A stretch of DNA of 22,883 nucleotides from an uncultured Chromatiaceae bacterium (GTDB taxonomy: Bacteria > Pseudomonadota > Gammaproteobacteria > Chromatiales > Chromatiaceae). Position 1 is the first letter of the stretch, and every line of letters begins with the position of its first letter. Location of the stretch: NCBI GenBank assembly GCA_964538875.1, contig CAZIHO010000051.1:1-22883 (forward strand), in the 5' to 3' direction. Positions 2,556 through 20,063 of this stretch are shown one piece after another. The notes under the pieces were generated by a model. It saw nothing but the letters and a program-made list of their open reading frames with translations. It was not told the DNA's origin and did not search any database. The translations under genes were made by a program, and so were the position numbers.

Positions 2556-4790
2556 TCATTTGGCCGGCGCCGCCGGTGTTAGCAACCGTCCCCGGCGACG
2601 CATCAGGGCCGCATCCAGCAGCATACGCCCGGCCCAGCGGTACACGTTGAATTCCATAACCAACGCTCGCATCAACTTCATCCGGTCCCGCTGCTCGGCC
2701 ACGGGCATGGTCATTGCCAGGTGCAAGGCGGCGGCGCATTGGTCCGCATCGTAGGGATTGACGATCAGGGCCTCCGGCAACTCCCTGGCAGCGCCAGTAA
2801 ACTGCGACAGGATCAGCACCCCCAATTCGTCATCATGGGCGGCCACATACTCCTTGGCGACCAGGTTCATGCCATCGTGGAGGCTGCTGACGAAACAGAA
2901 ATCCGCTGCCCGGTAGTATTCATACACCTGAACCGGCTGATGTTGCTCGGCTTTCAGGATGATGGGCGGCATACCGCCTTGGGCGAAGCGTGCGTTGATC
3001 TGTTGGGCCAGGGCCTCGACCCGGGCTTGATGATCTTGGTATTCACCGATCCGGGAGCGCGTCGGAGCGGCGATTTGGATGAAGCTAAAGCGGCCAATCC
3101 ACTCCGGGCGCAGCTCCAGCAGGCGCTCGATGGCCCGGAACCGTTCCACGATACCCTTGGTGTAATCGAGCCGATCCACGCCCACCCCTAGAAGGCAATC
3201 CGCGGGCAGTCCGTTTTGTGTGCGCAACAGCGGGCGGCAGGTCTCCAACGGCCTGGCCAAGCTGGCGTGTAGCGGCGGCCACTCGATGGAAATGGGATAA
3301 CGGCGCACTGCGGTCAGCTTGCCACCAAAGGAGACGGTGTGGGACTCACGATCCACCCGTGCTTCCAGACAGCGATCCACGGTATCCACAAAGTTGTTGC
3401 AATGGAACATGGTGTGGAACCCCAAGATGCTGCTGCCTAGCAAACCGTCCATGATCTCTGGGCCCCAGGGGCAAATGGCGAAGGACTCAGGATTGGGCCA
3501 GGGAATATGCCAGAAGGTGATAATGGTCGCCTCCGGCAGCCGCTCCCGGATCATGCGGGGCGCCAAGGCAAAATGGTAATCCTGAATCAGCACGATGGGA
3601 TCCGGGGTCTTGGCGGTGGCCACCACCGCGTCGGCGAAAATGCGGTTTACCTCGACGTAATAGGCCCAATCCTCTGACCGGAAGGTGGGCCGCACATGGG
3701 CAATGTGGCAGAGGGGCCACAACCCTTCATTTGAGAAACCATAATAATAACCAGTTTCCTGCTCCGGCGTCAGCCAGATTCGCCGCAGGCAATAGACCGG
3801 GTCATCCGGCGGAACCGCGACTTGGTCCCGTGCGTCCACGGTCTCCCGGTCAGCACTGCCGCTGCCGTGGGCGATCCAAACGCCGGAACACGCCCGCATT
3901 ACCGGCTCCATGGCTGTCACCAGGCCGCTGGCCGGACGGTGCACCTCGACCTGACCCTCCCGGCGCAGGTGAATATAGGGTTCCCGGTTAGACACCAAGA
4001 TAACGTCGTCGCCCCGCAATTCTCCCCGGAGAATGGCCCGCAAGGCCTCTGGGGTCCAGGTAATCTGGCTTTCATCCCGGGACCGGTAGCTCGATTCCAA
4101 TTCCCTCAACAACCGCTGCAGATCCCGGGCGATGGGCTGGAATTCGGGGGCGGGAGGAACCGCAGCGAGGCTGGCCTGGGGACGCCGGACCAGCCCCTCG
4201 CCACGAAGAATGGCGCGCATACCCGCAACCCAGCCGCGCCAAGACAACTGGGCGATCACCACGGTAATGAGTGACACCAGCAGGGTGACACCAAGAAACA
4301 CGTAAAACACATATTGCCGCGTCTCGGCGCTGCGCCGTCCGACGAAGCTCATGTCATGGACGATGACCAGTTGTGCCGCAGGTGCCGATGCCGTGGCCAT
4401 GGATTTAACGGCCAGGTGCAATAGGCCATGGGTATTCTCGAGGATTGGACGGCTTTGTTCACGCCAGCGCGACAGGTCGTTACAGTGAATCTCAGACGGC
4501 AATGACGCGGTCGCGATCATAGGGCCTTCGGGTCCAGCGCAATAAGCGAGGGCGAATAAGCGTTCATCCAGGGTGATATTGCTTAGAAACGCCGTGACCT
4601 TGGCCGGCGCCTGCGAGGCTAGCCACAAGGTGAGGGGTTCCCTGATCGCGTTGCTGATCAGATCAGCACGAATATCCAGATCGCGCTCGAACCAGTGCAA
4701 AGTCAACCGGTCTATCAGCGGTACCAGTCCGTACGCGACAAGGCCTAAGGCAAGGATCAAAGGCACAATGAATCGTAACGATATTCGCAT
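2556..4790 (-). CDS. otsA: Trehalose-6-phosphate synthase (GT20), 744 aa, with a ~255-aa N-terminal extension carrying two predicted TM helices.
   Basis: The C-terminal ~480 aa align with E. coli OtsA from '[11 protein letters not shown]' (E. coli 'RLVVVSNRIAPP') through '[15 protein letters not shown]' (E. coli '[17 protein letters not shown]'). The N-terminus has hydrophobic stretches '[20 protein letters not shown]' (aa 7-26) and '[23 protein letters not shown]' (aa ~160-183). A GGGAGGAGG-like RBS (ggaggagggg on the coding strand) lies just upstream of the ATG at 4790. Confidence 0.85.
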
Positions 4791-5000: not shown

Positions 5001-5690
5001 ACCGCACGGACACAGACCTGTTCTGTCACTGGACCCGGCAAGAGCCGGCGTCCAACAAACACCTGCCCCCGCCAGCCACTGGTGCTGGTAGACGCCCAGC
5101 TAGGGACGAACCAATCTGGCCGTCTGCAAAGGGCGTCGACTAGGCGGACCGCTAACTGGTTGTCATAGGCTATTTTCCTTGGTGCTCTGGGACATTTGGC
5201 TGGACCTGCAACCGGTCGAGCCGTTGGAATATTCCCGGCCGGAGCGCTGGTCGGGGACTGGAGCGGTAAGGCGATTATTCAGCGCTACCCACTTGGTTTT
5301 CATAAAAATTTCTAAAGGCCGCAAACCAGCCAGAACTGGCACCTATAGCCGCCAATACCGATGAACGGTGCCGGGAATCCCGCATATCCCTTTCTCAGGC
5401 GGGGATCCTTGGGCAAACCAAGAGCACTCACTTCCGCCGCAGCTCCCTGACGCTGGCAATAGGAAGTTATGGTCGGTTGACTATCCGGGGACCGGGAATG
5501 ATCTGGGCTTAGTCAGGATCATTCGGTGTTGGCAGCAGGCTGGTTTCCGGTGGATTGCGAATCGGTTCCAGTTCATGCCACAGACGCCGGTGTTGGGCAA
5601 GACTGGTGGCCGCGGACCTGGGCAGCATCCGGACTTCAGGCGCAGCCGCGCCGGTTGCGAGCAATCAATCACTTATGTCACGAGCGGCGC

Positions 5691-6091
5691 ATGGACTTGC
5701 TCAGTTCGGCCGCCTGGGACCTATCCGCCCTGCCGGAACCGGCCCGGACCCTGGTGGCGGAGTTAGTGGCGCATCCGGCGGCTGGGGACCGGGCCTCCTG
5801 TAGCCTGAATTCCCAGGCCGGTCGCTTCGATTTTCGGGCGGAACGCCTGCAGAATCGCCGGGGCTCCGGCGGCCGGATCCTGGTCAACATCAGTCACGCG
5901 GAACCCAGGGATCTGAGTGTGGCCCGGCGCTTGGCGGATTGGTCCCTGGCACCCCAGGAGAAGCGGAGGCGTTGGGCGTGAAGGTGGGAACCCTGAAGAT
6001 GTACATCAACCAGCTCAAGGCCAAGTTGGAAATCGAGTCACGAGAGGCGTTCATCGGCCAACTGTTGGCGGAACCCCCGTCCGATCCTTGA
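5691..6091 (+). pseudogene. Degraded small HTH regulator (LuxR / sigma-70 region-4-like helix-turn-helix) interrupted by a frame change near 5960.
   Basis: Frame ending at stop 6089-6091 reads 'EAEALGVKVGTLKMYINQLKAKLEIESREAFIGQLL'. This resembles the recognition-helix segment of LuxR/sigma70_r4 HTH domains ('IAE.LGIS.GTVK..L..A..KL'). The upstream part ('MDLLSSAAWDLS...ISHAEPRDLSVARRLADWSLAPQE') is in a different frame. No intact ORF joins them. Confidence 0.25.
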
Positions 6092-6630: not shown

Positions 6631-9165
6631 ATGCCAAGAGAAGACGATCGTCCGATGCGCGAAACGGAACTGGTGCTGCCCCCCGGCGTCTTTGCCTTCG
6701 TACTAGATAGCACTAAGGGTAATATAAATACCTATTGCGGCCCCATCAAGCAAAGCCTGAGTAATACCGACCAATTGGTCGTCTATAACGCCGATAGCCG
6801 CCGCTTCCAACCGGCGGCCAATTTCAGCCAGGCGATTCAGACCCATATCACCGCCGCTAAGGGGCACTACGTCATCCTGCAAAACCCGTCCCGGGATGGG
6901 CATCATCCCGAACCGGGCAAAGCGGAGATGTTGCCCCCGAATTTCCTCAAGACCGGGGAAACCGAGAACCTGCCTGGCCCCCAATCCTTTCCCCTCTGGC
7001 CCACCCAGACCGCTGAGGTGGTGTTGGGCCACCAATTGCGTTCTAACCAGTATCTATTGGTGCGGGTTTATGACGAGGAAGGCGCCCGGACCAATTGGAA
7101 CCAGGGCGTCATCAAGCTGGCGGAAACCGCCGGCGTCGGCAATGCGCCCGCCACCTCGGTGCTGGGCATCGATCCCACCGGCCTGTTCACCGGCCAATTG
7201 CTCATCATCATGGGGAATAAGGTCAGTTTCTATATTCCCCCGAGCGGCATCGAGGTCTTACCGGAGAGCGGCGGCACCGAGCCCCGCTATGTGAGGGACG
7301 CGGTGACCCTGGAGCGGCTGGAGTATTGCATCCTGTTGGATGAAAGCGGCCTCAAGCGTTACTTGATCGGCCCGGAAGTGGTCTTTCCCAAACCCACCGA
7401 GCAGTTCGTGATCCGGGACGGCAAGCGCAAATACCGGGCCTATGAATTGACCGACATCAGCGGCCTGCACATCAAGGTCATCGCCGACTACCAAGAACCG
7501 GACGGCGCCTGGCATAAGGCCGGGGACGAACTCTTCATCACCGGCGCCAGCCAGTCGATTTATTATCCCCGGTCGGAACACGCCATCATCAGCTATGGCG
7601 ACCGGGAACTCTATTACGCCATTGCCATTCCCTCCGGGGAAGCCCGCTACCTGATGAACCGTCGCACCGGCGACATTCGCTTGGTGCGGGGTCCGGCGGT
7701 CTATCTGCCCAATCCCATCGATGAGGTGGTGGTCAAGCGCATCCTGAGCGATAGCGAATGCGGCATGTATTTTCCCGGCAATGGCGCGGTGCTGGACTAC
7801 AACCGGTCCCTGCGGACCCGAGGTGCGGGTGGGGCGGCGCCCCTGGAAATGCCACCGGACGGCCCCCGCCCGCCCCCACTCCCGGCGGCGCCAGCCGTCG
7901 CCCTCCGGGAACTCGCTGGCCCTGGTGCCTTCGGCGACACCCTGCAACGGGTAGCGACCTACACTCCCCCACGCACCATCACGCTGGACACCAAGTTCGA
8001 GGGGGCGGTGACCATCGATGTCTGGTCCGGGTACGCGGTGCAGGTGGTGAATCGCCAAGGGGAACGCCGGGTGGTGACCGGCCCCCAAACGGTCTTGCTG
8101 GCCTATGACGAGATCCTGGAACCCCTGGCCCTGAGCATGGGCACTCCCAAGGACCCGGCCCGCACCCTCAAGACCGTCTATCTCCGGGTCCGCTCCAATG
8201 CGGTCAGCGACCGGGTCAGCGTCAAAACCCGGGACCTGGTCCCCCTCACCGTGCAGTTGAAGTACCTGGTGCGGTTCGACGGTGATCAAGCGAGCTGGTT
8301 CAACATCGACAACTACATCCAATACCTTTGCGACCATTTGCGCTCCCTGATCGGCAATCAGGTGCGGGCGATCGGGGTGCTGGAGTTCTATTTTTCCGCC
8401 GCCACCCTGCTGCGGGACCTGGTGTTGGGCGCCAAGGCCCAGGACGGCAGCCGGCCGTTGCGGCATTTTGCGGAAAACGGCATGACAGTCTATGACCTGG
8501 AGGTGATTAGCATCTCCATCGACGATGACCGCATCGACCAACTGCTGCACCAATCCCAGCAAGAGAATCTGCTCAACACCATCGAGTTGGAACGGCAACA
8601 GCGCCTGCATCTGCTCACTGCCGGCCAGGAACAGGCCAAGCGCCAGATCGAGCAGGAGCGGGCCACTACCCAGGCCCTCACTCAACAGCTGTTGCTGGAC
8701 ATTAGCGAAGGTCAGGACCGGCTGGCCATGGCGGAAATTCAATCCCAGACGAGCCGGGAACAGCAACGGGCCAACGGGACCCTGGAAGTACAGGCGATCG
8801 ACAGCCGCATCGCCGCAATGCGGCTGGCGGAGCGCCAGGCGCAGTTGGAAAGCGAGGCCCATTTTGCCCACCTGGCCCTGGAACAGCGCCTGCGGGAGAG
8901 CGATGCCCAGGCCCGCCACCTCACCGAGCAAATGGCGGCCATCCAACCTGCCCTGGTAGAGGCGCTGACCGCCATCGCCGCCACCGGCACCCTGCAATCC
9001 CTAGCGGAACATCTGGCGCCCCTGAGCCTGGTAAGGGACCAAAGTCTGGCGGCCACCCTGGAGCAGATGTTCCGGGGCACCCCCCTGGCGGGGCTGTTGG
9101 ACAACCTGCGTCAACTGGGCCAGGGACGGCTGTTGCAAGGAGAGGACCCGGCCGATGCCAGCTAG
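6631..9165 (+). CDS. Major vault protein (MVP)-like protein, 844 aa.
   Basis: The N-terminus 'ELVLPPGVFAFVLDSTKGNINTYCGPIKQSL...VVYNADSRRFQPA...KGHYVILQNPSRDG...GPQSFPLWPTQTAEVV' parallels human MVP '[32 protein letters not shown]...VLFAPMRMVTVPP...PRHYCTVANPVSRDAQG...AQDPFPLYPGEV'. Repeated ~55-aa MVP-repeat-like segments follow, and the Gln/Glu/Arg-rich C-terminal helical region resembles the MVP cap-helix. An AAGGGG RBS lies 8 nt upstream of the ATG. Confidence 0.85.
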   Translation: MPREDDRPMRETELVLPPGVFAFVLDSTKGNINTYCGPIKQSLSNTDQLVVYNADSRRFQPAANFSQAIQTHITAAKGHYVILQNPSRDGHHPEPGKAEMLPPNFLKTGETENLPGPQSFPLWPTQTAEVVLGHQLRSNQYLLVRVYDEEGARTNWNQGVIKLAETAGVGNAPATSVLGIDPTGLFTGQLLIIMGNKVSFYIPPSGIEVLPESGGTEPRYVRDAVTLERLEYCILLDESGLKRYLIGPEVVFPKPTEQFVIRDGKRKYRAYELTDISGLHIKVIADYQEPDGAWHKAGDELFITGASQSIYYPRSEHAIISYGDRELYYAIAIPSGEARYLMNRRTGDIRLVRGPAVYLPNPIDEVVVKRILSDSECGMYFPGNGAVLDYNRSLRTRGAGGAAPLEMPPDGPRPPPLPAAPAVALRELAGPGAFGDTLQRVATYTPPRTITLDTKFEGAVTIDVWSGYAVQVVNRQGERRVVTGPQTVLLAYDEILEPLALSMGTPKDPARTLKTVYLRVRSNAVSDRVSVKTRDLVPLTVQLKYLVRFDGDQASWFNIDNYIQYLCDHLRSLIGNQVRAIGVLEFYFSAATLLRDLVLGAKAQDGSRPLRHFAENGMTVYDLEVISISIDDDRIDQLLHQSQQENLLNTIELERQQRLHLLTAGQEQAKRQIEQERATTQALTQQLLLDISEGQDRLAMAEIQSQTSREQQRANGTLEVQAIDSRIAAMRLAERQAQLESEAHFAHLALEQRLRESDAQARHLTEQMAAIQPALVEALTAIAATGTLQSLAEHLAPLSLVRDQSLAATLEQMFRGTPLAGLLDNLRQLGQGRLLQGEDPADAS

Positions 9166-11782
9166 CCTTAGCACCCAGCCCTTCACGCTGATCCTGGCGG
9201 ACAGCCTCACCAACGACTTCATGGGCGGCGGGGCGTTCGAGCAAACCGGAGTACATATCGGCCAGCGGGACGTGGAGCGGCTGATGGGGGCCGGCAGCGC
9301 GGCCGGCAACGGCCCCCTGCCCACTTTCTTGAGTCAGGCGGTGGCAGCCCGCCGCCAAGGCCGGCCCATCGGCCTGATCCTGGTGCGGGATTGCCACGAC
9401 CCCAAAGACCCGGACCAACTGCCGGAACTGCTCCGCTATGGCCGTCATAACGTCCGGGGCGAACAAGGCGCCGCCTTTTTGCCCTTCCTCAAGCCCCTGC
9501 TAAGTGCGGCCGCCATCCTGGAAACCCGCTCCCTGTCCCTGCCCCTCAAATCTCTGCGGCGGGTGACGCGACGCCTGTTAGGACAGGATCTACTGACCCT
9601 GAACGGGGAACAGCGGCGGCTGCTACGCTGGGTGCTGGTGGGGTGCCACACGGACAAGCGGATCCTGGGCACCGCCAATCTGTTGCGCAACGTGTTGGAA
9701 TTTCCCAATGTCGCGGTCTGCCCCCATCTGGTGGGGAGCAGTAACCACGAGGCCCACCTGGCCAGCTTGCAGGTGGCTCTGCCGGATGCCTTGGTGCAGG
9801 TGTTTCCCGATCTCCGCGCCCTGCTGGGGTTCGCCGGCCTGGCGAAAAAGCCGTTCCGCCAGTTCGACTGCCGGGGCGCGGCGCTGGGGCCACCCGGCGT
9901 GATCCAGTCCTTGAACGCGGACCAGAGGCACATCCTGGAGCTGGCTTTTCTCCGTTGCTCCCAGGTGACCCTGCAACCTTTGAGCGGCGGATTTAGCGGC
10001 AGTCTGCTGTGGCTGGCGCGGCGCCAGATCGACGGCGTGGCGGGGGCGCCGGTGGTGGTCAAGATCGACCGGCATGGGGCTATGCAAAAGGAATTGGAAG
10101 GCTACGACCGGGTCAAGGCCATCTTTGGTAGTCAGGTGCCCAGCTTCGGTACGCCCATCTCGTCCGGCGGTCATACCGGCATCCTCATGGAACTGGCCTC
10201 CCGTTCCGGCACGCCCCACACCCTGCAATGGCTGTTTGAGCAGGCGGTGGAACAGCGCGACCCGGACCAATTCCTAGCCCCGCTCCGGGCCAGCCTGGAA
10301 TTGCTGCACCAGCGCCTGTACCGGCCCACCTTGCGCCGGTGCCGCTTCTCGCCCTGGCAGCGGCTCGGGCTGTCCGCGCCCCAGCAATGGGAGTGGCTCA
10401 GGGAGAATATCGGCCACATCACCAACGACGGCTGGCAAGGCGGCCCGATCCGGCTGACGCCGGATCTGGTGTTGGAGGACTTCACCGCCCTGTTCCAGCA
10501 ACTGGCCGCCGACTCCCATTGGCTGCCCGGCGCCCATTGCCTTGGCCATGGAGATCTGAACCTGGCCAACATCATCCTGGATGACCTGGCCAATGTCTGG
10601 TTCATCGACTGGACCCACGCCGGGTTGCTGCCCGTGGAATTGGATCTGGCCAAGCTGGAAAACGACATCAAGCTGGTGGTCAGCAAGGGGCTGGCCCACC
10701 AGGACCTGGGGGACCTCCTGATCCTGGAGCGTCTGCTGCTGGAACAGCGGCTACCCCTGCCCCTGGAGGAAGCGGCCAAGCGGTTGCCGGGGTTGGCCAG
10801 CGACCCGCACCTGGCCTTGGTTTACCAATCCGTGGCCGCCATCCGCCAGCGATACGCGGACCTGCATCCAGAGCAGGATGACACCCTGTATCAAATCGCC
10901 TTGCTGCGTTATGCCACCCATACCCTCAGTTTCGATGCCCGGCGCGGGCGGGGCGAGTGCAGCTTGGAGCAACTGCGACACGCCCTGGGCACCGTGCATC
11001 TGCTGGTGCAACAACTGGCTAGGGGCGATTTTCACCGGCTGACCCCCGCCGTGCGGCCCGACTCCTACCCGGACCGGCAACGGCTACCCCGGGAACTGGC
11101 ACCCTGGCCAGTGCCCTGTCCGGACTATCAGCCCCCCTTCCATGAGGACCCCATCCTGTCCCACAGCGACTGGGCTGATCCCCTGGACATGGACTGGGCG
11201 CCGCCGGATGACGCCGACCCTTGGCGGGACCCCCTGGGCCGTCCCCTCAATCCACGGGGCCGCACCGGCTTGGCGGGACGGGGGCTGCTGGGCCGCTGGG
11301 GCGCCAACCGGGCGGTGGATCCGGTTATCACCCGGATCAATCCCGGTAACGGCCGGCTGGAACTGCTGCTGGGCCGCCGTTGGGACACCGGCGAAAGCTC
11401 CCTGCCAGGCTGTATGCGGCTGGCGGGGGAAAGCGAGGCCCAGGCCCTGGTCCGCTGCCTGCGGCTCAAGGCCGGGATTTCCCTGCCCATGAAAGCGGGC
11501 AGCCGGGTCTACCGGGGGCCGGTGGACGATTTCCGGGACACGGACCACGCCTGGATCGAAAGCAGCACCTGGAGTTGGCATTTGACCGGCAAGGCGGCCC
11601 GGCGCCTGTACTTCCGGGGCGGCGGCGGTCTCGGCGAACTGGGCTGGACGGGCATCAGCCCCGAACTGCTGCGGAGCCTGTTCGCGGGCCACGCGGACCT
11701 GGTACGGTGCGCCCTGCGCTGGCGGGCCGCCCGCCGCGAGCCCGGCGCCGATCAGATGGAACAGCTTTTACGGGAGAGTTGA
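9155..11782 (+). CDS. Three-domain protein, 875 aa: N-terminal isochorismatase/cysteine-hydrolase-like domain, central APH/protein-kinase-like phosphotransferase domain, C-terminal NUDT9-type Nudix (ADP-ribose-binding/pyrophosphatase-like) domain.
   Basis: N-terminal domain: '[11 protein letters not shown]...[13 protein letters not shown]...[13 protein letters not shown]...[18 protein letters not shown]' follows the isochorismatase/PncA pattern (VIDxQNDF ... HCVxGTxGAxF ... VVGIATDxCV). Middle domain: '[30 protein letters not shown]' is the HGD catalytic loop plus the DFG-equivalent of APH/choline-kinase-fold enzymes. C-terminal domain: '[29 protein letters not shown]' and '[25 protein letters not shown]' closely match human NUDT9 ('[29 protein letters not shown]', '[25 protein letters not shown]'). 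The start overlaps the MVP stop by 11 nt, with an AGGAGA RBS upstream. Confidence 0.8.
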   Translation: [875 protein letters not shown]

Positions 11783-11789
11783 CCTGACC

Positions 11790-12353
11790 TTGGAACGAAC
11801 CTCCACCACCCACCCCATCCGCATCGACTGGGTGTCCCTGGGCGGCCGGGGCCGCATCGGCATGACCTTCTGTCCCGGCAAGGTCCAGGACGACGCCTGG
11901 ACCGGCCGCTGGCGCCGGGATCTAGGCACCGATCTGCTGGCCATCCGCCGCTGGGGGTGCCGCCTGCTGCTGTCCCTGATCGAGGAACCGGAATACCTGG
12001 AATTAGGCGTTCCAAATCTGGGAGCAGAGGCCCAGCGCTACGGCTTGGCCTGGCAGCCGCTGCCCATCCGGGATCGATGCGCCCCGGACCAGCGTTTCGA
12101 GGCGGCCTGGCCCCAGCTATGGCCACAGGTGCAAGAGGTATTAGAGCAGCGGGGAGACCTGGTGCTGCACTGCAAAGGCGGACTGGGACGCACCGGAACC
12201 CTGGCCGCCTGCCTGCTGGTCAGTTTCGGCGAGTCACCGGCCAGCGCCCTGGGCCGGGTGCGTCTGGCCCGTCCGGGAACGGTGGAAACCCCGGCCCAGG
12301 AAGCCTATGTGCGGGCTTGGCCCGCCAGGTGGGCAAGTCTGGGCCAAAAATAA
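11790..12353 (+). CDS. CDKN3/KAP-like dual-specificity protein phosphatase (CX5R active site), 187 aa, TTG start.
   Basis: Active-site loop 'LHCKGGLGRTGTLAACLLVS' matches the CX5R signature (HCxxGxGR[ST]G). It is especially close to human CDKN3 'IHCYGGLGRSCLVAACLLLY'. A GGGAGAG RBS lies 11 nt upstream of the TTG, and the gene begins 7 nt after the previous stop. Confidence 0.7.
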   Translation: MERTSTTHPIRIDWVSLGGRGRIGMTFCPGKVQDDAWTGRWRRDLGTDLLAIRRWGCRLLLSLIEEPEYLELGVPNLGAEAQRYGLAWQPLPIRDRCAPDQRFEAAWPQLWPQVQEVLEQRGDLVLHCKGGLGRTGTLAACLLVSFGESPASALGRVRLARPGTVETPAQEAYVRAWPARWASLGQK

Positions 12354-12388
12354 GTCAGGCCCATCCTGGATGCGCCGGGATCAGACCA

Positions 12389-12690
12389 GATCCACCCGGC
12401 TGCCGTTCCATTGGACCGCCCCGGTCCCGGCCCTCGTACACCCGGGAGCCTGGCGCACGGCTGCCAATCAGTACCCATGTCCCAGCGGTTGGGATAGGGT
12501 TTCCAGGCGCCTTCGATGCCGCTGGTGGTGGCGCAACCCCCCAGGCCAGACCTGCTCACCATCTCCAAACTGCCCGGCGATGCTGTTACCCGCATCATCA
12601 GCCGGCACTATGCCCACCTGTGCCACAACACCCTGAAAGCTGCCGTCACCAATCGGCCCAGCTTGGGGCATCAGGCCGAAACCAAAAGGA
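12389..12690 (-). pseudogene. katG: Catalase-peroxidase (katG) gene fragment, internally deleted and frameshifted.
   Basis: DNA is ~88% identical to two separate parts of the intact katG in this window. Segment 12389-12480 matches katG 17925-18025 (C-terminal lobe, 'DMGTDWQP...'). Segment 12472-12560 matches katG 19018-19095 (N-terminal lobe, '[11 protein letters not shown]...WDMG'). The two are joined at a shared 'cccatgtcc' (DMG) junction. An 8-nt indel ('tgccccgg') and further indels break the frame. Confidence 0.65.
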
Positions 12691-12788
12691 AGCCAGACCC
12701 ACGGTCTGCACGTGCAAGCGCAGACGTGCCCTGCAAGGGGATGGGCGCGGAGCGGGAACGCGCTGGCGGGAGTGGCATCCGACGACGG

Positions 12789-13070
12789 ATAGGAAATCCA
12801 ACCGGCCCAGGAAACCATCCCTTTTTGTTGTTTATGATCAGATAGTTAGCGAGCACCCGGATGTAGGTTTAGTAGGCTGGAGGCACCTGCCAAAGCCTCC
12901 GGTAAGAATCTGGCGGCAGGTTTTTAGCGGTTGGGAAGCAGACGGGGAACCGCTTGCGGAATCTAACGCAAGCTCAATCCAGCTTCGCACCAGGTGGCCT
13001 CACAGAACTCTCGGTTAGTATGCCGGTGCCTCGGCTGCGGAACCGCTTACCAACTGCCGGTCTGGTCGAA
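12789..13070. repeat. 282-bp repeat element, copy 1 (no terminal inverted repeats; probable non-autonomous mobile element).
   Basis: Direct sequence comparison shows ~93% identity to 14198-14480 over the full length, in the same orientation. Contains conserved hairpins ('ctggaggc-acctgccaaa-gcctccgg', 'gcttgcg-gaatctaa-cgcaagc'). Confidence 0.85.
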
Positions 13071-13121
13071 TTGGCCGACGACTCGGCCGAGGCCGTGTTT
13101 GCCAGGATCAAGGGGCGGTGA
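13071..13121 (+). pseudogene. 3'-terminal remnant (~16 codons) of an antitoxin gene (TIGR02574-like 'addiction module component'), truncated by the upstream repeat.
   Basis: Frame reads '...LVELADDSAEAVFARIKGR*', with TGA overlapping the GTG start of the downstream ParE-like gene (GTGA). The '...IPAEEVFARLRAR'-type C-terminus is typical of antitoxins paired with the RFPY-type RelE/ParE toxins. The match to the repeat consensus ends at exactly 13070. Confidence 0.35.
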
Positions 13122-13412
13122 GGATTCGCGTCCTCTCCCGCGCCGAGGAAGAATTTGTTGAAGCGGTCAAGATACAACAATGAGCGTCCCAGACTTGGCC
13201 ACGAGTACATTGAGGAGGTGCAGGCCGTCTTCGACCGCATTCATGCCTTCCCCGACCCATGCCCGATCTTTTCCGTCCGTGCGCGTCGCTGCCTCGTCAG
13301 GCGTTTCCCGTATCCTATCCTCTACCAAGTCCGCGCCGACCGCATCCTCGTTCTCGCCATCATGCACCTCAAGCGTGACCCCAATGCCTGGCGCCAACGG
13401 GCAACCAACTGA
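13118..13412 (+). pseudogene. RelE/ParE-family toxin gene (~98 codons) with a +1 frameshift near 13171.
   Basis: N-terminal frame: 'VRIRVLSRAEEEFVEAVK', then premature stop at 13181. The rest is in the -2 frame: 'YNNERPRLGHEYIEEVQAVFDRIHAFPDP...VRRFPYPILYQVRADRILVLAIMHLKRDPNAWRQR'. Together they match the ~97-aa RelE/ParE toxins ('YRIRVLPRAE..L.EI..YY......LG..FL.EV......I...P........VRRAPVRRFPYGVFYRV.GD.VVVLAVYHTRRDP..W'). A single extra 'a' in 'aag A tac aac' creates the shift. Confidence 0.6.
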
Positions 13413-13631
13413 GCCGTCTCGTATCGCAGCACCGATAACTTCGGTTGATCGTTCCCGCACGGGAAGCGACTCTTGGGATTGGAGCTTATGGATACTGCTC
13501 CGCCCGCTTCACCCGCTTGTAGAGATCCTTCTCACGGGGTTCCAAGGGCGTAGCCGGGCAGGGGTTGAGGACCTCCACCCTGCGGTTGGCGTTGTACTGG
13601 ACTGGACCACCACCCGCGGGGCGGGTCTACC

Positions 13632-14108
13632 CTATGGCTTCTTCAGCGGATCGTTGGCGACCTTGGGGTCCAGGTAATCGATCAGCGCCACGAGGCCGCC
13701 CTTCAAGGCGTAGACGTTACTGAAGCCGATGTCCCGCAGGGCCACGGCGATCAGGGTGCAGCGCAGTCCCTGCTGGCAAACTACCAGGACCTTCTTGTCG
13801 GTGGGGATCCGCGCGAGATTGTCCGGTTGAAACACCTCGTTCATCTGCATGGACAAGGTATCCGGGTTACCGATACCGAGCACGCGGCGTTCCGCTGGCG
13901 TACGCACATCCAGTATCACCACGGACTCGCCGGCCTTGATCCAGTTGACCAGCGTTTCCGGGGGTATCCTGGCCAGGGCCTTGGGGGTATTGGCATCGGC
14001 GAAGGGGGCGAACAGCCCCTCGTACTGTTTGGCCTTGGTCGCGTCATAGGCACCGGCCGTGCCCATGAGCAGCATCAGCAGGGGCAGCATGAACAGGCGC
14101 CATTTCAT
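13632..14108 (-). CDS. Periplasmic single-domain rhodanese (sulfurtransferase), 158 aa, with signal peptide.
   Basis: N-terminal signal peptide 'MKWRLFMLPLLMLLMGTAGA'. Rhodanese active-site loop 'VVCQQGLRCTLIAVALRDIGFSNVYALKGG' (Cys in the CxxGxR loop). A GAGGAG RBS lies 7 nt upstream. Confidence 0.8.
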   Translation of the reverse strand: MKWRLFMLPLLMLLMGTAGAYDATKAKQYEGLFAPFADANTPKALARIPPETLVNWIKAGESVVILDVRTPAERRVLGIGNPDTLSMQMNEVFQPDNLARIPTDKKVLVVCQQGLRCTLIAVALRDIGFSNVYALKGGLVALIDYLDPKVANDPLKKP

Positions 14109-14197
14109 CTCGTTTCTCCTCAGTGAGCGGAATCAATCATCCGTAATTTTTGGCTATACCCGCCGGGGCAGGCACTTGCCATGATTTTTCGCAACAA

Positions 14198-14480
14198 ATA
14201 GGAAATCCAACCGGCCCAGGAAACCATCCCTTATGTTTCGTTTATGATCAGATACTTAGCGAGCACCCGGATGTAGGTTTAGTAGGCTGGAGGCACCTAC
14301 CAAAGCCTCTGGCAAGAATCTGGCGGCAGGCTTTTAGCGGTTGGGAGGCAGACGGGGAACCGCTTGCGGAATCTAACGCAAGCTCAATCCAGCTTCGCAC
14401 CAGGTGGCCTCACAGAGCTCTCGGTTAGTATGCCGGTGCCTCGGCTGAGGGACCGCTTACCAACTGACGGTCTGGTCAAA
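14198..14480. repeat. 282-bp repeat element, copy 2.
   Basis: ~93% identical to 12789-13070 in the same orientation. It lies immediately 3' of the IS91-family transposase C-terminal remnant on the minus strand. Confidence 0.85.
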
Positions 14481-14639
14481 CGGGAAGTCATGCTGCACTT
14501 CCCTGTGCAGCACCCTTCGGGCGGCCTAGGGCCGTGCAAACCGGCTTTCCTGCCGGTTGTTCAGGTTCAGGCTGGGCCAGGGGATCAAATGACGGCAAGG
14601 CTTGCGCGCCTGTCGCTGGTTGTCCCTCGCTTTCCTCCC

Positions 14640-14886
14640 ACCAAATAGGTGGCCCCCTGACCGGGGAGACCTTATGCGGATCGGTGGGCTGGCCGATGTG
14701 CTTCAGGATGCGGAGGACCGTTGAACCCTGGGGAACGAAGGCGATAATCCGCAGGTCAGCCGAGCAGTTCGGACAGGTGAGCGGCACCGACTCGTACAGA
14801 CGGGCCAAGAGAACGGCCCAGAGATACCGGGCCGGAGAGCGCCAGCACCCTCGTCGGCTAAGGAACTTAACTGCCCCGCTGACCAA
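14640..14886 (-). mobile_element. IS91-family (HUH rolling-circle) transposase, C-terminal remnant only.
   Basis: 'YLWAVLLARLYESVPLTCPNCSADLRIIAFVPQGSTVLRILKHIGQPTDPHKVSPVRGPP' matches the conserved C-terminus of IS91/IS801-type transposases ('LLARVFE.DVL.CP.CGG.MRIIAFIED..VI.KIL.HLGL......PP'). There is no upstream catalytic HUH/Y2 part. The ORF abuts the low-GC island. Confidence 0.55.
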
Positions 14887-15004
14887 ATGGGCGACTCGGC
14901 TCCCATGAGCGTCTGGCTGTCCAAAAAGTCCTGCGCCAGATCGCTGCTTATGGCGGTGACATCCCGAAGGAATTGATCGTCTAATTGCAAGTAGAAAGTC
15001 AATA

Positions 15005-15035
15005 GCGCGGACAAATGTCCGCGCCGTTTTTCTTA
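15005..15035. terminator. Stem-loop terminator-like hairpin immediately after the GT2 gene stop, possibly bidirectional.
   Basis: 'GCGCGGACA-aat-TGTCCGCGC' is followed on the + strand by 'CGTTTTTCTT' and on the - strand by 'TATTGACTTTCT'. It starts directly after the TGA of the 15036-16517 gene. Confidence 0.5.
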
Positions 15036-16517
15036 TCAGGGAAGTCGTGGAGTTATGGTAATGGAGGAAACAGGCACTCCAAGCAATCTTTTATCTTTAG
15101 GGACAAGCCAGGGCTCGCAAGTTAATGCAAAACGGGTTGGTGCATCTTCGTTTACCTGAAACGAAATCCTTCGCGGAGCGCGTTCCTGCAAAACTGGCAT
15201 TGGCTTCTCGTTGATATAAAATTTTAAATTCTCTATAGGCCGAATAGCCATTAACCAGTCAATCTCCAGATCATAATTACCCGGCACCAGGGAAATTTCT
15301 ATCATTGCAACGGGTTCGCTCCACCTAAATCTTTTGCCCTGCCATTCTTCAGAAGCATAAAAGCCCCCAAAAGGGTAAGAGCGCGCTTCATCCGCAGTCC
15401 ATCGTAGGGATGAAGTGGCTGCTGAAGGCTTTTCCTCAATATCGAAAGCGAAGCGAACTCTTTCAAGCTTAACCGTCGCATCGATCAGCTGCAAAAATTG
15501 TGTGTGTAGATAAGATTTTCCGAACCGCAAATTGAGCAAAAGGGTTAAGAGCCATCGTTTAACTTGAAATCGAAGCCAGGCATGGGTCAGGGATGTTCTC
15601 TTTAATGTTTCAAATGGAAAACTTAATCTAAGTAACATCAAGCCGCGTGCAAATATCTCACGAGGGCTCAAACATCTTCGGAAAGACTTCGAATGCGAAT
15701 TGGATGACAGCCTAAATGCCCTGTCATATAATCTCGAATTCCATCGATAGAAATTCAGCCACTCGAGCGGGTCTGGAAAATAAGAGCGGCTTTCATCATC
15801 TTTATATTTTGAAAGGTATGTCATTTCCCCACGGGCAAAATCTTCCGAAAATTTAATTAACTCTTTTATTTCTCCGATATAATAATGATGCACTTGGGCT
15901 TCTGGTACATACCCGATTTGATATCCATTTTGGTGCATTCGGGCAGCTAAATGCCATTCAGCAAAGTGACCAAGTTCGGGGTTAAATCCGCCTGCCTTAT
16001 GGTAATTTCCTGCACGCACTACAAAACATTGATCTAATATTCTCCTCCAAGGACATTCATTCATACCATAAAGGAGATCGGCTTCATACATATCGGCTTC
16101 GATCACAGACAGGCGATTGTGCGTTATACGAATAGATTGGCAGGAAAACCCTGCCCAGTCCGGATGTTCATCAATCGCTTTATCTGCTACGGACAAAATA
16201 TTTCGATCTGGCAAAACATGAGATTCGGTGAAAAACAATATTTCACCTTGGGCTTGTCGGGCGCCAAATGCACATAAAGCCATGTCGTGAGGCTCATCAA
16301 AGAGCAACAATCGATCATATTCACTCAATAGGGTCTTGAAATATGCAATTGTCTTTAAATCTAATGAGAATCGGCACCCAACAGCAACGACTTCAAATTG
16401 TTCGCGCAGGTAATCTTGCTCTTTAACCCAACGGCGTAGACATTCTTCACTTTGCCCACGATGGAACTCTAATGGAATAATGATCGAAAAACGAAAGGAC
16501 GGTTTTTTTTCAGCCAT
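15036..16517 (-). CDS. Family-2-like (GT-A fold) glycosyltransferase with a ~250-aa C-terminal domain of unknown function, 493 aa, low GC.
   Basis: N-terminus 'FSIIIPLE' and 'AQGEILFFTESHVLPD' match the GT2 start and DxD region. '...VRAGNYHKAGGFNPELGHFAEWHLAARMHQNGYQIGYVPEAQVHH' matches the GT2 'GGF.E......ED.DL..R....G..I.Y.P.A.V.H' region. Local GC (~45%) is far below the flanking DNA. It is 33 nt downstream of the sulfotransferase gene on the same strand. Confidence 0.65.
   Translation of the reverse strand: MAEKKPSFRFSIIIPLEFHRGQSEECLRRWVKEQDYLREQFEVVAVGCRFSLDLKTIAYFKTLLSEYDRLLLFDEPHDMALCAFGARQAQGEILFFTESHVLPDRNILSVADKAIDEHPDWAGFSCQSIRITHNRLSVIEADMYEADLLYGMNECPWRRILDQCFVVRAGNYHKAGGFNPELGHFAEWHLAARMHQNGYQIGYVPEAQVHHYYIGEIKELIKFSEDFARGEMTYLSKYKDDESRSYFPDPLEWLNFYRWNSRLYDRAFRLSSNSHSKSFRRCLSPREIFARGLMLLRLSFPFETLKRTSLTHAWLRFQVKRWLLTLLLNLRFGKSYLHTQFLQLIDATVKLERVRFAFDIEEKPSAATSSLRWTADEARSYPFGGFYASEEWQGKRFRWSEPVAMIEISLVPGNYDLEIDWLMAIRPIENLKFYINEKPMPVLQERAPRRISFQVNEDAPTRFALTCEPWLVPKDKRLLGVPVSSITITPRLP

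Positions 16518-17783: not shown

Positions 17784-20063
<2,280 letters not shown>

Follow-up and report, generated by a model that had tools for sequence, protein, structure and literature searches.

The window analysed here is a stretch of 22,883 nucleotides (positions 1 to 22,883 of contig CAZIHO010000051.1) from an uncultured Chromatiaceae bacterium, and it holds two direct copies of a 282-bp repeat, at 12789-13070 (copy 1) and 14198-14480 (copy 2). We conclude that the copies are very probably the oriIS-bearing 3′ ends of a decayed, ISPps1/ISCR8-like insertion sequence (IS) of the IS91 family. Members of this family move by rolling-circle transposition via an HUH Y2 transposase. The repeat is ordinary mobile-element debris; its parent element is undescribed, and the kind of object is already known. 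It is without demonstrated present function and would be non-autonomous at best, with a transposase needed in trans.

Transposase codons and a family terminus in the repeat

A repeat search of the window returned the copies in two matches (12819-13070 with 14229-14480, 252 nt, 94%; 12789-12823 with 14198-14232, 35 nt, 100%), whose registers lie one base apart and thus reflect one indel. In a global alignment, 268 of 283 columns are identical (94.7%); the rest are 14 substitutions, of which 9 are transitions, and a single 1-nt indel. Their start-to-start spacing is 1409 bp, and homology between them breaks off sharply at both repeat ends. No terminal inverted repeats were found: the first 40 nt scored no better against the reverse complement of the last 40 nt than shuffles did. 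The flanks of the two copies share no target-site duplication, which is a weak test for two truncated elements. An earlier note, written from the sequence alone, had described two direct copies with ~93% identity and no terminal inverted repeats. Both statements hold, with an identity slightly above the one given there.

The element remnants, all on the minus strand, are as follows.

14560-14832, minus strand: IS91-family (ISPps1-like) transposase remnant, matching residues 420-509 of the 518 of ISPps1 TnpA
14490-14562, minus strand: hairpin-rich insertion of ~73 nt, interrupting the tnpA remnant between ...QPEP(E) and DFPFDQTVSW-stop
14198-14480, minus strand: copy 2, 3′ end of a probable IS91-family element (7 tnpA codons and stop, 259-nt tail, GGTTGGATTTCCTAT terminus at 14198)
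12789-13070, minus strand: copy 1, probably the same 3′ end, beginning 7 codons before the stop (terminus at 12789, flank CCGT)
14198-14212, minus strand: putative oriIS terminus of copy 2, GGTTGGATTTCCTAT, flank TTGT
12789-12803, minus strand: putative oriIS terminus of copy 1, GGTTGGATTTCCTAT, flank CCGT

We compared the 518-amino-acid ISPps1 TnpA with the window by tblastn and obtained a single match (residues 420-509, 14832 to 14560, 47% identity, E value of 2e-21). The minus strand beside copy 2 encodes ...SPARYLWAVLLARLYESVPLTCPNCSADLRIIAFVPQGSTVLRILKHIGQPTDPHKVSPVRGPPIWWEE...DPLAQPEPE, and a protein search yielded nothing but short C-terminal fragments like it, e.g., MLLARLFESLPLTCPNCGADMRIIAFVTDAAPVERILNHIGEPPRPPPIAPARGPPAWEE...QPEPDFEFDQRxSW. 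A homologous C-terminal peptide matched 80 plasmid records by tblastn, including genes annotated “IS91 family transposase” and “IS91 family transposase ISPps1.” The remnant is physically continuous with copy 2, and the catalytic domain is absent from the window. The earlier note had also placed an IS91-family transposase remnant next to copy 2, and the ISPps1 match bears this out.

The coding sequence continues into the repeat. Copy 2 reads GAC TTC CCG TTT GAC CAG ACC GTC AGT TGG TAA, i.e., DFPFDQTVSW and stop (14489 to 14457), of which FDQTVSW and the stop (14480 to 14457) lie within the repeat. Copy 1 reads TTC GAC CAG ACC GGC AGT TGG TAA, i.e., FDQTGSW and stop (13070 to 13047). Transposases of this clade end in ...FDQRxSW (P0003-P0017) or, in ISPps1, in ...VDQRVNW; the full-length element of contig L041 ends in ...PEFEFDQTVSW, and its last seven codons are the same DNA as in the window. 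Judged from the reading frames, the clade's canonical ...FDQxxSW-stop ending falls inside the repeat. The noncoding DNA between the tnpA stop and the terminus measures 259 nt in copy 2 and 258 nt in copy 1. The unit is thus noncoding over ~259 of its 282 nt but includes, on the minus strand, the last seven tnpA codons and the stop. An alternative named in the earlier note, that the repeat is the 3′ end of a protein-coding gene, therefore applies in part.

The plus-strand open reading frame (ORF) within the repeat is a different matter. Neither copy interrupts its frame, and of the 10 substitutions that separate the copies within it, 8 are nonsynonymous. The only homologues found in protein searches were ORF calls from the same locus, and a full HMMER scan returned only the same-locus ORF P0022 and chance matches to leucine-rich-repeat proteins. 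The earlier view that it is not a gene stands.

The insertion of ~73 nt consists of three GC-rich hairpins. Because it shifts the frame, the ORF list contains a false stop at 14488. No further copy of it was present in any DNA fetched, and its match to the Rfam family anti-hemB is below threshold (21.5 bits versus a gathering score of 49.5).

The opposite end of each copy carries a motif found in relatives. IS91-family elements have distinct oriIS and terIS ends, no inverted repeats, and no target duplication (PMC13181058), and a conserved 17-bp oriIS lies 167 bp downstream of the coding sequence in IS91-like elements (PMC5737581, citing Schleinitz 2010). We surveyed the DNA downstream of every related tnpA that could be fetched. 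The motif GGTTGRATTTCCTAT, then CC, was present 184 to 256 nt past the tnpA stop in ~14 other distinct IS91-family elements; the form across relatives is GGTTG(G/A)ATTTCCTAT, then CC. The distance is 184 to 227 nt in ISPps1 (L011), a second IS in three plasmids (L025-27), an Aeromonas plasmid element (L028), a Thiodictyon plasmid (L012), ENA/NCBI metagenome contigs (L006, L008, and L009/10), and JGI contigs (L029-L038 and L047/48), of which L036 also has a full-length tnpA. In L041, which has a full-length tnpA as well, the variant terminus ATTGAAATTCCTATCC lies 256 nt past the stop. Where the same IS occurs in several contexts, homology stops directly after the motif plus four bases. Between elements, the tails are unalignable from the tnpA stop to the last ~20 to 50 nt.

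In the window, both tails finish in GGGCCGGTTGGATTTCCTAT, at 14198 and 12789, and the motif occurs at the two copy ends only (0.21 chance matches expected). The copy 1 flank, CCGT, is the commonest flank among putative termini. CC occupies positions +1/+2 of every other putative terminus except that of L003, where the match lies inside a gene for an AMP-binding enzyme and is probably due to chance. We infer that 12789 and 14198 are oriIS termini because motif conservation and position fit the published descriptions. With tnpA codons at one end and the family terminus at the outer ends, 12789 and 14198, the derivation from an IS91-family end proposed in the earlier note is upheld.

Several observations weigh against this assignment. 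The oriIS function is read from motif conservation and position. The copy 2 flank, TTGT, departs from CC, and this junction may be secondary. The searches found no intact element that has this 260-nt 3′ region and could be the parent, and the nearest transposases are 47 to 59% identical to the remnant. We did not recognise a terIS at the inner boundary of either copy; a palindrome plus cleavage site like that of ISPps1 (GGCCCGAAC...GGTTCGGGCC) was not recognised at 13040-13075, 14450-14565, or 14150-14197. No intact close relative, which would define the terIS of the window's lineage, was found. A definition taken from the plasmid copies of ISPps1 was abandoned; these copies are 5′-truncated at differing points, and among them L011 alone shows a candidate palindrome and a LexA-like box.

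Structured-RNA and MITE readings of the repeat

The earlier note had raised the possibility that the repeat is expressed as a structured RNA, with a covarying hairpin. In this reading, the repeat would encode a noncoding RNA (a small RNA or cis-regulatory element) conserved for its fold. The repeat does contain GC-rich hairpins, and an 8-bp stem (12877-12884 with 12895-12902) is intact or nearly so in six of six variants, with the loop and surroundings varying. The hairpin CUGGAGGC...GCCUCCGG exists, as does the G-U wobble of copy 2 (GCCUCUGG), but this is a one-sided single change and not covariation. In L004, this stem has lost one pair (U-G to A-G), with a mismatch immediately beyond it, and the substitutions in L015 break two pairs of a second, neighbouring predicted hairpin.

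Measures of the fold were equally unremarkable. At the gathering score, the whole window had no Rfam match; at an E value of ≤10, nothing within 12600-14700 matched in the repeat, the sole match being that to anti-hemB in the 73-nt insertion. A tRNA/tmRNA scan found none, and no sigma-70-like promoter was found. Folding z-scores against shuffles were −0.49 (plus strand) and −0.03 (minus strand), i.e., without excess stability. An RNAalifold analysis of copy 1, copy 2, L004, and L005 (pairwise identity, 85 to 94%) yielded compensatory changes in 0 of 73 pairs on the plus strand and in 1 of 63, a doubtful one, on the minus strand, with a covariation term of about −0.5 kcal/mol. The unit also starts within coding sequence. 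We consider a structured RNA very improbable, and that proposal is set aside.

Copies elsewhere were sought in several collections. The 282-bp unit was not found outside this locus and its orthologues in the collections searched, which are incomplete. A scan of the genome collection with the terminal 20-mer gave three matches, which have only the ~20- to 24-nt terminus in common with the repeat; two of them (L001 and L002) look like solo termini with a CC flank. Scanning metagenomes with an internal 22-mer gave no match (one JGI contig, L015, lay outside the scanned set), and metagenome scans of related tnpA contigs turned up no copy of the repeat's tail. There was no match in plasmids by blastn with the repeat, and the plus-strand ORF as a protein query gave no candidates for other copies. 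We regard this absence as weak evidence, and nothing supports a dispersed family of miniature inverted-repeat transposable elements (MITEs). The independent, MITE-like element suggested in the earlier note is not borne out, with no terIS-like end recognised and no copy beyond the locus. We conclude that two IS91-family oriIS-end remnants are the appropriate annotation of the locus, and that labelling it a candidate RNA gene or a new repeat family would be inappropriate.

The spacer, the second end, and strain variation

The two ends bracket DNA of other origin, listed here.

13071-14197, no strand assigned: spacer between the two ends, 1127 bp, with an antitoxin 3′ end, ParE, and rhodanese
13071-13121, plus strand: truncated antitoxin 3′ end, the last ~17 codons, ending in ...LADDSAEAVFARIKGR and stop
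13118-13412, plus strand: ParE-family toxin gene, from a Pfam match and reading frames, frameshifted near 13175 (VRIRVLSRAEEEFVEAVK / YNNERPRLGHEY...)
13632-14108, minus strand: rhodanese gene, from a Pfam match, with a signal-peptide-like start

The order of the parts can be read directly along the minus strand: the tnpA remnant, the 73-nt insertion, then the last 10 codons, tail, and ori of copy 2. Past copy 2 come 90 nt beginning TTGT, the rhodanese gene (14108 to 13632), ParE, the antitoxin remnant, and copy 1. Beyond copy 1 lie CCGT, debris, and then a DSP-phosphatase gene. The debris includes, at 12385-12552 (minus strand), a catalase-peroxidase (katG) fragment made of nonadjacent pieces that are 80 to 93% identical to the intact katG at 17784-19970. 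At ~12560-12700 (plus strand), the peptide ...LLTISKLPGDAVTRIISRHYAHLCHNTLKAAV resembles the C terminus of a tyrosine recombinase; it has no Pfam match and is unverified.

Copy 1 and the antitoxin gene meet at a point internal to both sequences, so the junction is a deletion or recombination scar and not an insertion junction. In a reading of the frames, the in-frame 5′ half of the antitoxin gene was not found upstream of 12789. This agrees with the earlier note, which had copy 1 as solo and adjoining a truncated toxin-antitoxin locus; the antitoxin 3′ end abuts 13070. With a truncated antitoxin and a frameshifted toxin, the locus (parDE) is, to judge from its frames, doubly dead; loss of the toxin is expected after loss of the antitoxin.

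The rhodanese gene also appears to be out of place. Homologues 64 to 72% identical lie directly downstream of genes of the flavocytochrome-c sulfide dehydrogenase type (L053-L055). Here, the gene sits 90 nt from the copy 2 terminus, and copy 2 replaces the usual upstream context; hence, we take the rhodanese gene to be displaced DNA. A promoter scan found no outward promoter toward it.

Two direct copies 1409 bp apart could also be explained without any transposition, by a simple segmental duplication in tandem or as the attL/attR repeats of a small integrated island, and a possible integrase C-terminal fragment (~12560-12700, unverified) would suit an island. However, the spacer occurs once, and the two copies have different flanks; the repeat holds tnpA codons and an IS91-family terminus; 282 bp at 5% divergence is unlike att core repeats; and Pfam does not recognise the integrase-like fragment. 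The make-up of the locus thus already contradicts this explanation, which we consider extremely unlikely.

In an intact element of this kind, the order is terIS, tnpA, ~185 to 260 nt of noncoding DNA, and the presumed oriIS terminus GGTTGRATTTCCTAT. Copy 2 is very probably the end of an element that decayed in place, leaving the last ~100 tnpA codons with the 73-nt insertion inside. Copy 1 is a second end in the same orientation, fused to the antitoxin 3′ end, and the two bracket 1127 bp of displaced DNA, so that successive putative oriIS termini delimit a unit of 1409 bp. The second end may have arisen by either of two routes. In the first, one-ended rolling-circle transposition of a second element would have captured the DNA on its terIS side, and the product would then have inserted or recombined at the oriIS end already present, as in an ISCR “sandwich.” One-ended transposition requires only oriIS (PMC5737581) and collects DNA on the terIS side (PMC5737581, PMC13181058), and the spacer does lie on the terIS side of copy 1. 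The combination of CCGT at copy 1 with TTGT at copy 2 could be explained by this route, because insertion of the spacer plus copy 1 between the resident terminus and its flank would produce it. ISCR28 offers a parallel in which two sequential oriIS sandwich a captured gene (PMC12772301). In the second route, two independent nearby insertions would have been followed by a deletion from inside tnpA into parD. We weight the two routes roughly equally; the second would need no more steps than the first.

Ori termini duplicated in direct orientation also occur in L006/L007 and L012. L006/L007 has the terminus at 5595-5607 and again at 5931-5943, 336 nt apart; in L012, the duplicated region is 3494-3540. 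In these other IS91-family elements, the second copy is ~40 nt long and sits not far beyond the first. Duplication of the ori end seems to be recurrent in this group.

Related strains differ at this locus. Two Logan contigs, L004 and L005, are collinear with the window from 17841 to 14211 (98 to 100% identity over flanking genes, 97.1 to 97.4% over the whole alignment) and have a single repeat copy. They join repeat position 14211 to window position 12302 through a 12-nt microhomology, TTCCTGGGCCGG, found both in the repeat, near its ori end, and at the 3′ end of the phosphatase gene (L004, 2847-2858; L005, 3626-3637; window, 14211-14222 and 12291-12302). They lack 12303-14210 and with it copy 1, the toxin-antitoxin remnant, and the rhodanese gene. 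Since the junction truncates the phosphatase gene, we conclude that L004 and L005 carry a secondary deletion. The two-copy arrangement is present in at least 10 distinct short contigs from other samples, at 98.7 to 100% identity to the window.

Among near-identical strains (L004, L005, L015, and L021), differences from the window are concentrated in patches of IS-derived DNA, at 12635-12937 and 14198-14832, whereas identity is 99 to 100% over the spacer and neighbouring genes. All 9 differences of L015 are transitions within 53 nt (12885-12937), and the spacer has none; 21 of the 22 differences of L021 fall in 12635-12871, where one patch equals the L005 allele. Against L004/L005, the tnpA remnant is 93% identical, the repeat 85 to 87%, and the 73-nt insertion 97 to 99%; the noncoding DNA at 14833-15035 is 99% identical, and the neighbouring gene for a 493-amino-acid protein has a synonymous divergence of 0.02 to 0.03. 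From the alignments, the patchy variation resembles gene conversion in which diverged copies were the donors, but no such donor was found. We regard the concentration of strain variation in IS-derived DNA as a small curiosity.

A further reading is that one of two units, either the 282-bp one or that of 1409 bp (12789-14197), still moves as a non-autonomous rolling-circle element. A transposase of the IS91 family acting in trans would nick one oriIS and stop at the next, giving circles or tandem copies. The 1409-bp unit is bounded on both sides by exact ori termini, the consensus CCGT at copy 1 and not at copy 2 fits insertion of the spacer plus copy 1, and the ISCR28 “sandwich” is a precedent (PMC12772301). 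In addition, two Logan contigs (L013, 1440 nt; L014, 1439 nt) consist of exactly one period of repeat plus spacer (1409/1410 nt) with a 30-nt terminal overlap and look circular. However, their cut points are the edges of a 69-nt block identical in both copies, and such contigs can come out of the assembly graph when a linear genome has two copies and bubbles are popped; we regard them as probable assembly-graph products and not as evidence of an excised circle. Contigs L016-L018, from other samples, break at the repeats, as a linear locus predicts. No copy was found in another genomic context, the window has no transposase gene, and a terIS was not recognised. Present mobility is therefore unlikely. 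We think it quite unlikely, too, that the 1409-bp segment is a live “ori-to-ori” translocatable unit, excised or tandem-amplified by a trans-acting IS91-family transposase; if it were, the patchy hypervariability would reflect repeated recombination, either with these intermediates or with diverged copies that escaped notice.

Neighbouring genes and comparison with known systems

On the plus strand at 6631-12353 are three consecutive genes, for an 844-amino-acid major-vault-protein-like protein (Vault, MVP_shoulder), an 875-amino-acid TCAD9 protein, and a 187-amino-acid DSP-type phosphatase, which look like a “ternary complex” conflict system beside IS debris. At 15036-16517 (minus strand) is the 493-amino-acid ORF, which adjoins a sulfotransferase gene and is without a Pfam domain; it is 99% identical in L004/L005, with a ratio of nonsynonymous to synonymous substitution rates well below 1.

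MITEs and other non-autonomous IS derivatives resemble the repeat in that it is short, derived from an IS end, and noncoding save for 7 terminal tnpA codons. Unlike them, it has one of the two required ends, and its two copies share one locus, without independent insertion sites.

A close likeness is that to the ISPps1/ISCR8-like elements. Shared features are a transposase C terminus of the form CPxCxxxMRIIAF...ARGPPxW...FDQxxSW-stop, a noncoding tail of ~185 to 260 nt, the terminal motif GGTTGRATTTCCTAT (followed by CC in the relatives and at copy 1), and the lack of inverted repeats. In contrast, the window remnant is 47 to 59% identical to its nearest relatives, the internal 240 nt of its tail have no detectable similarity to any of them, and the element is dead, with ~80% of tnpA missing and no terIS seen. 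The motif GGTTGRATTTCCTAT plus CC, 185 to 260 nt after ...FDQxxSW-stop, is usable to delimit ISPps1/ISCR8-like elements in environmental genomes.

Products of one-ended transposition by IS91 (PMC5737581 and PMC13181058, summarising Mendiola et al. 1994) likewise start at oriIS, have a variable end, and lack target duplications. IS91 itself has CTTG/GTTC next to oriIS, whereas the flank here is CC(G/T/C)(T/C), and the termination site of the putative event in the window is unrecognisable.

The arrangement as a whole resembles the ISCR “sandwich” and complex class 1 integrons (ISCR28, PMC12772301). In both, two direct oriIS ends bracket foreign DNA, which is located on the terIS side relative to the downstream end; this placement is predicted for one-ended transposition. 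The window differs in that both elements are truncated and nothing points to current mobility. Its cargo differs too: instead of a resistance gene, it consists of a rhodanese gene plus a dead toxin-antitoxin pair. We conclude that the locus documents an ISCR-style double oriIS around captured DNA outside the antibiotic-resistance setting.

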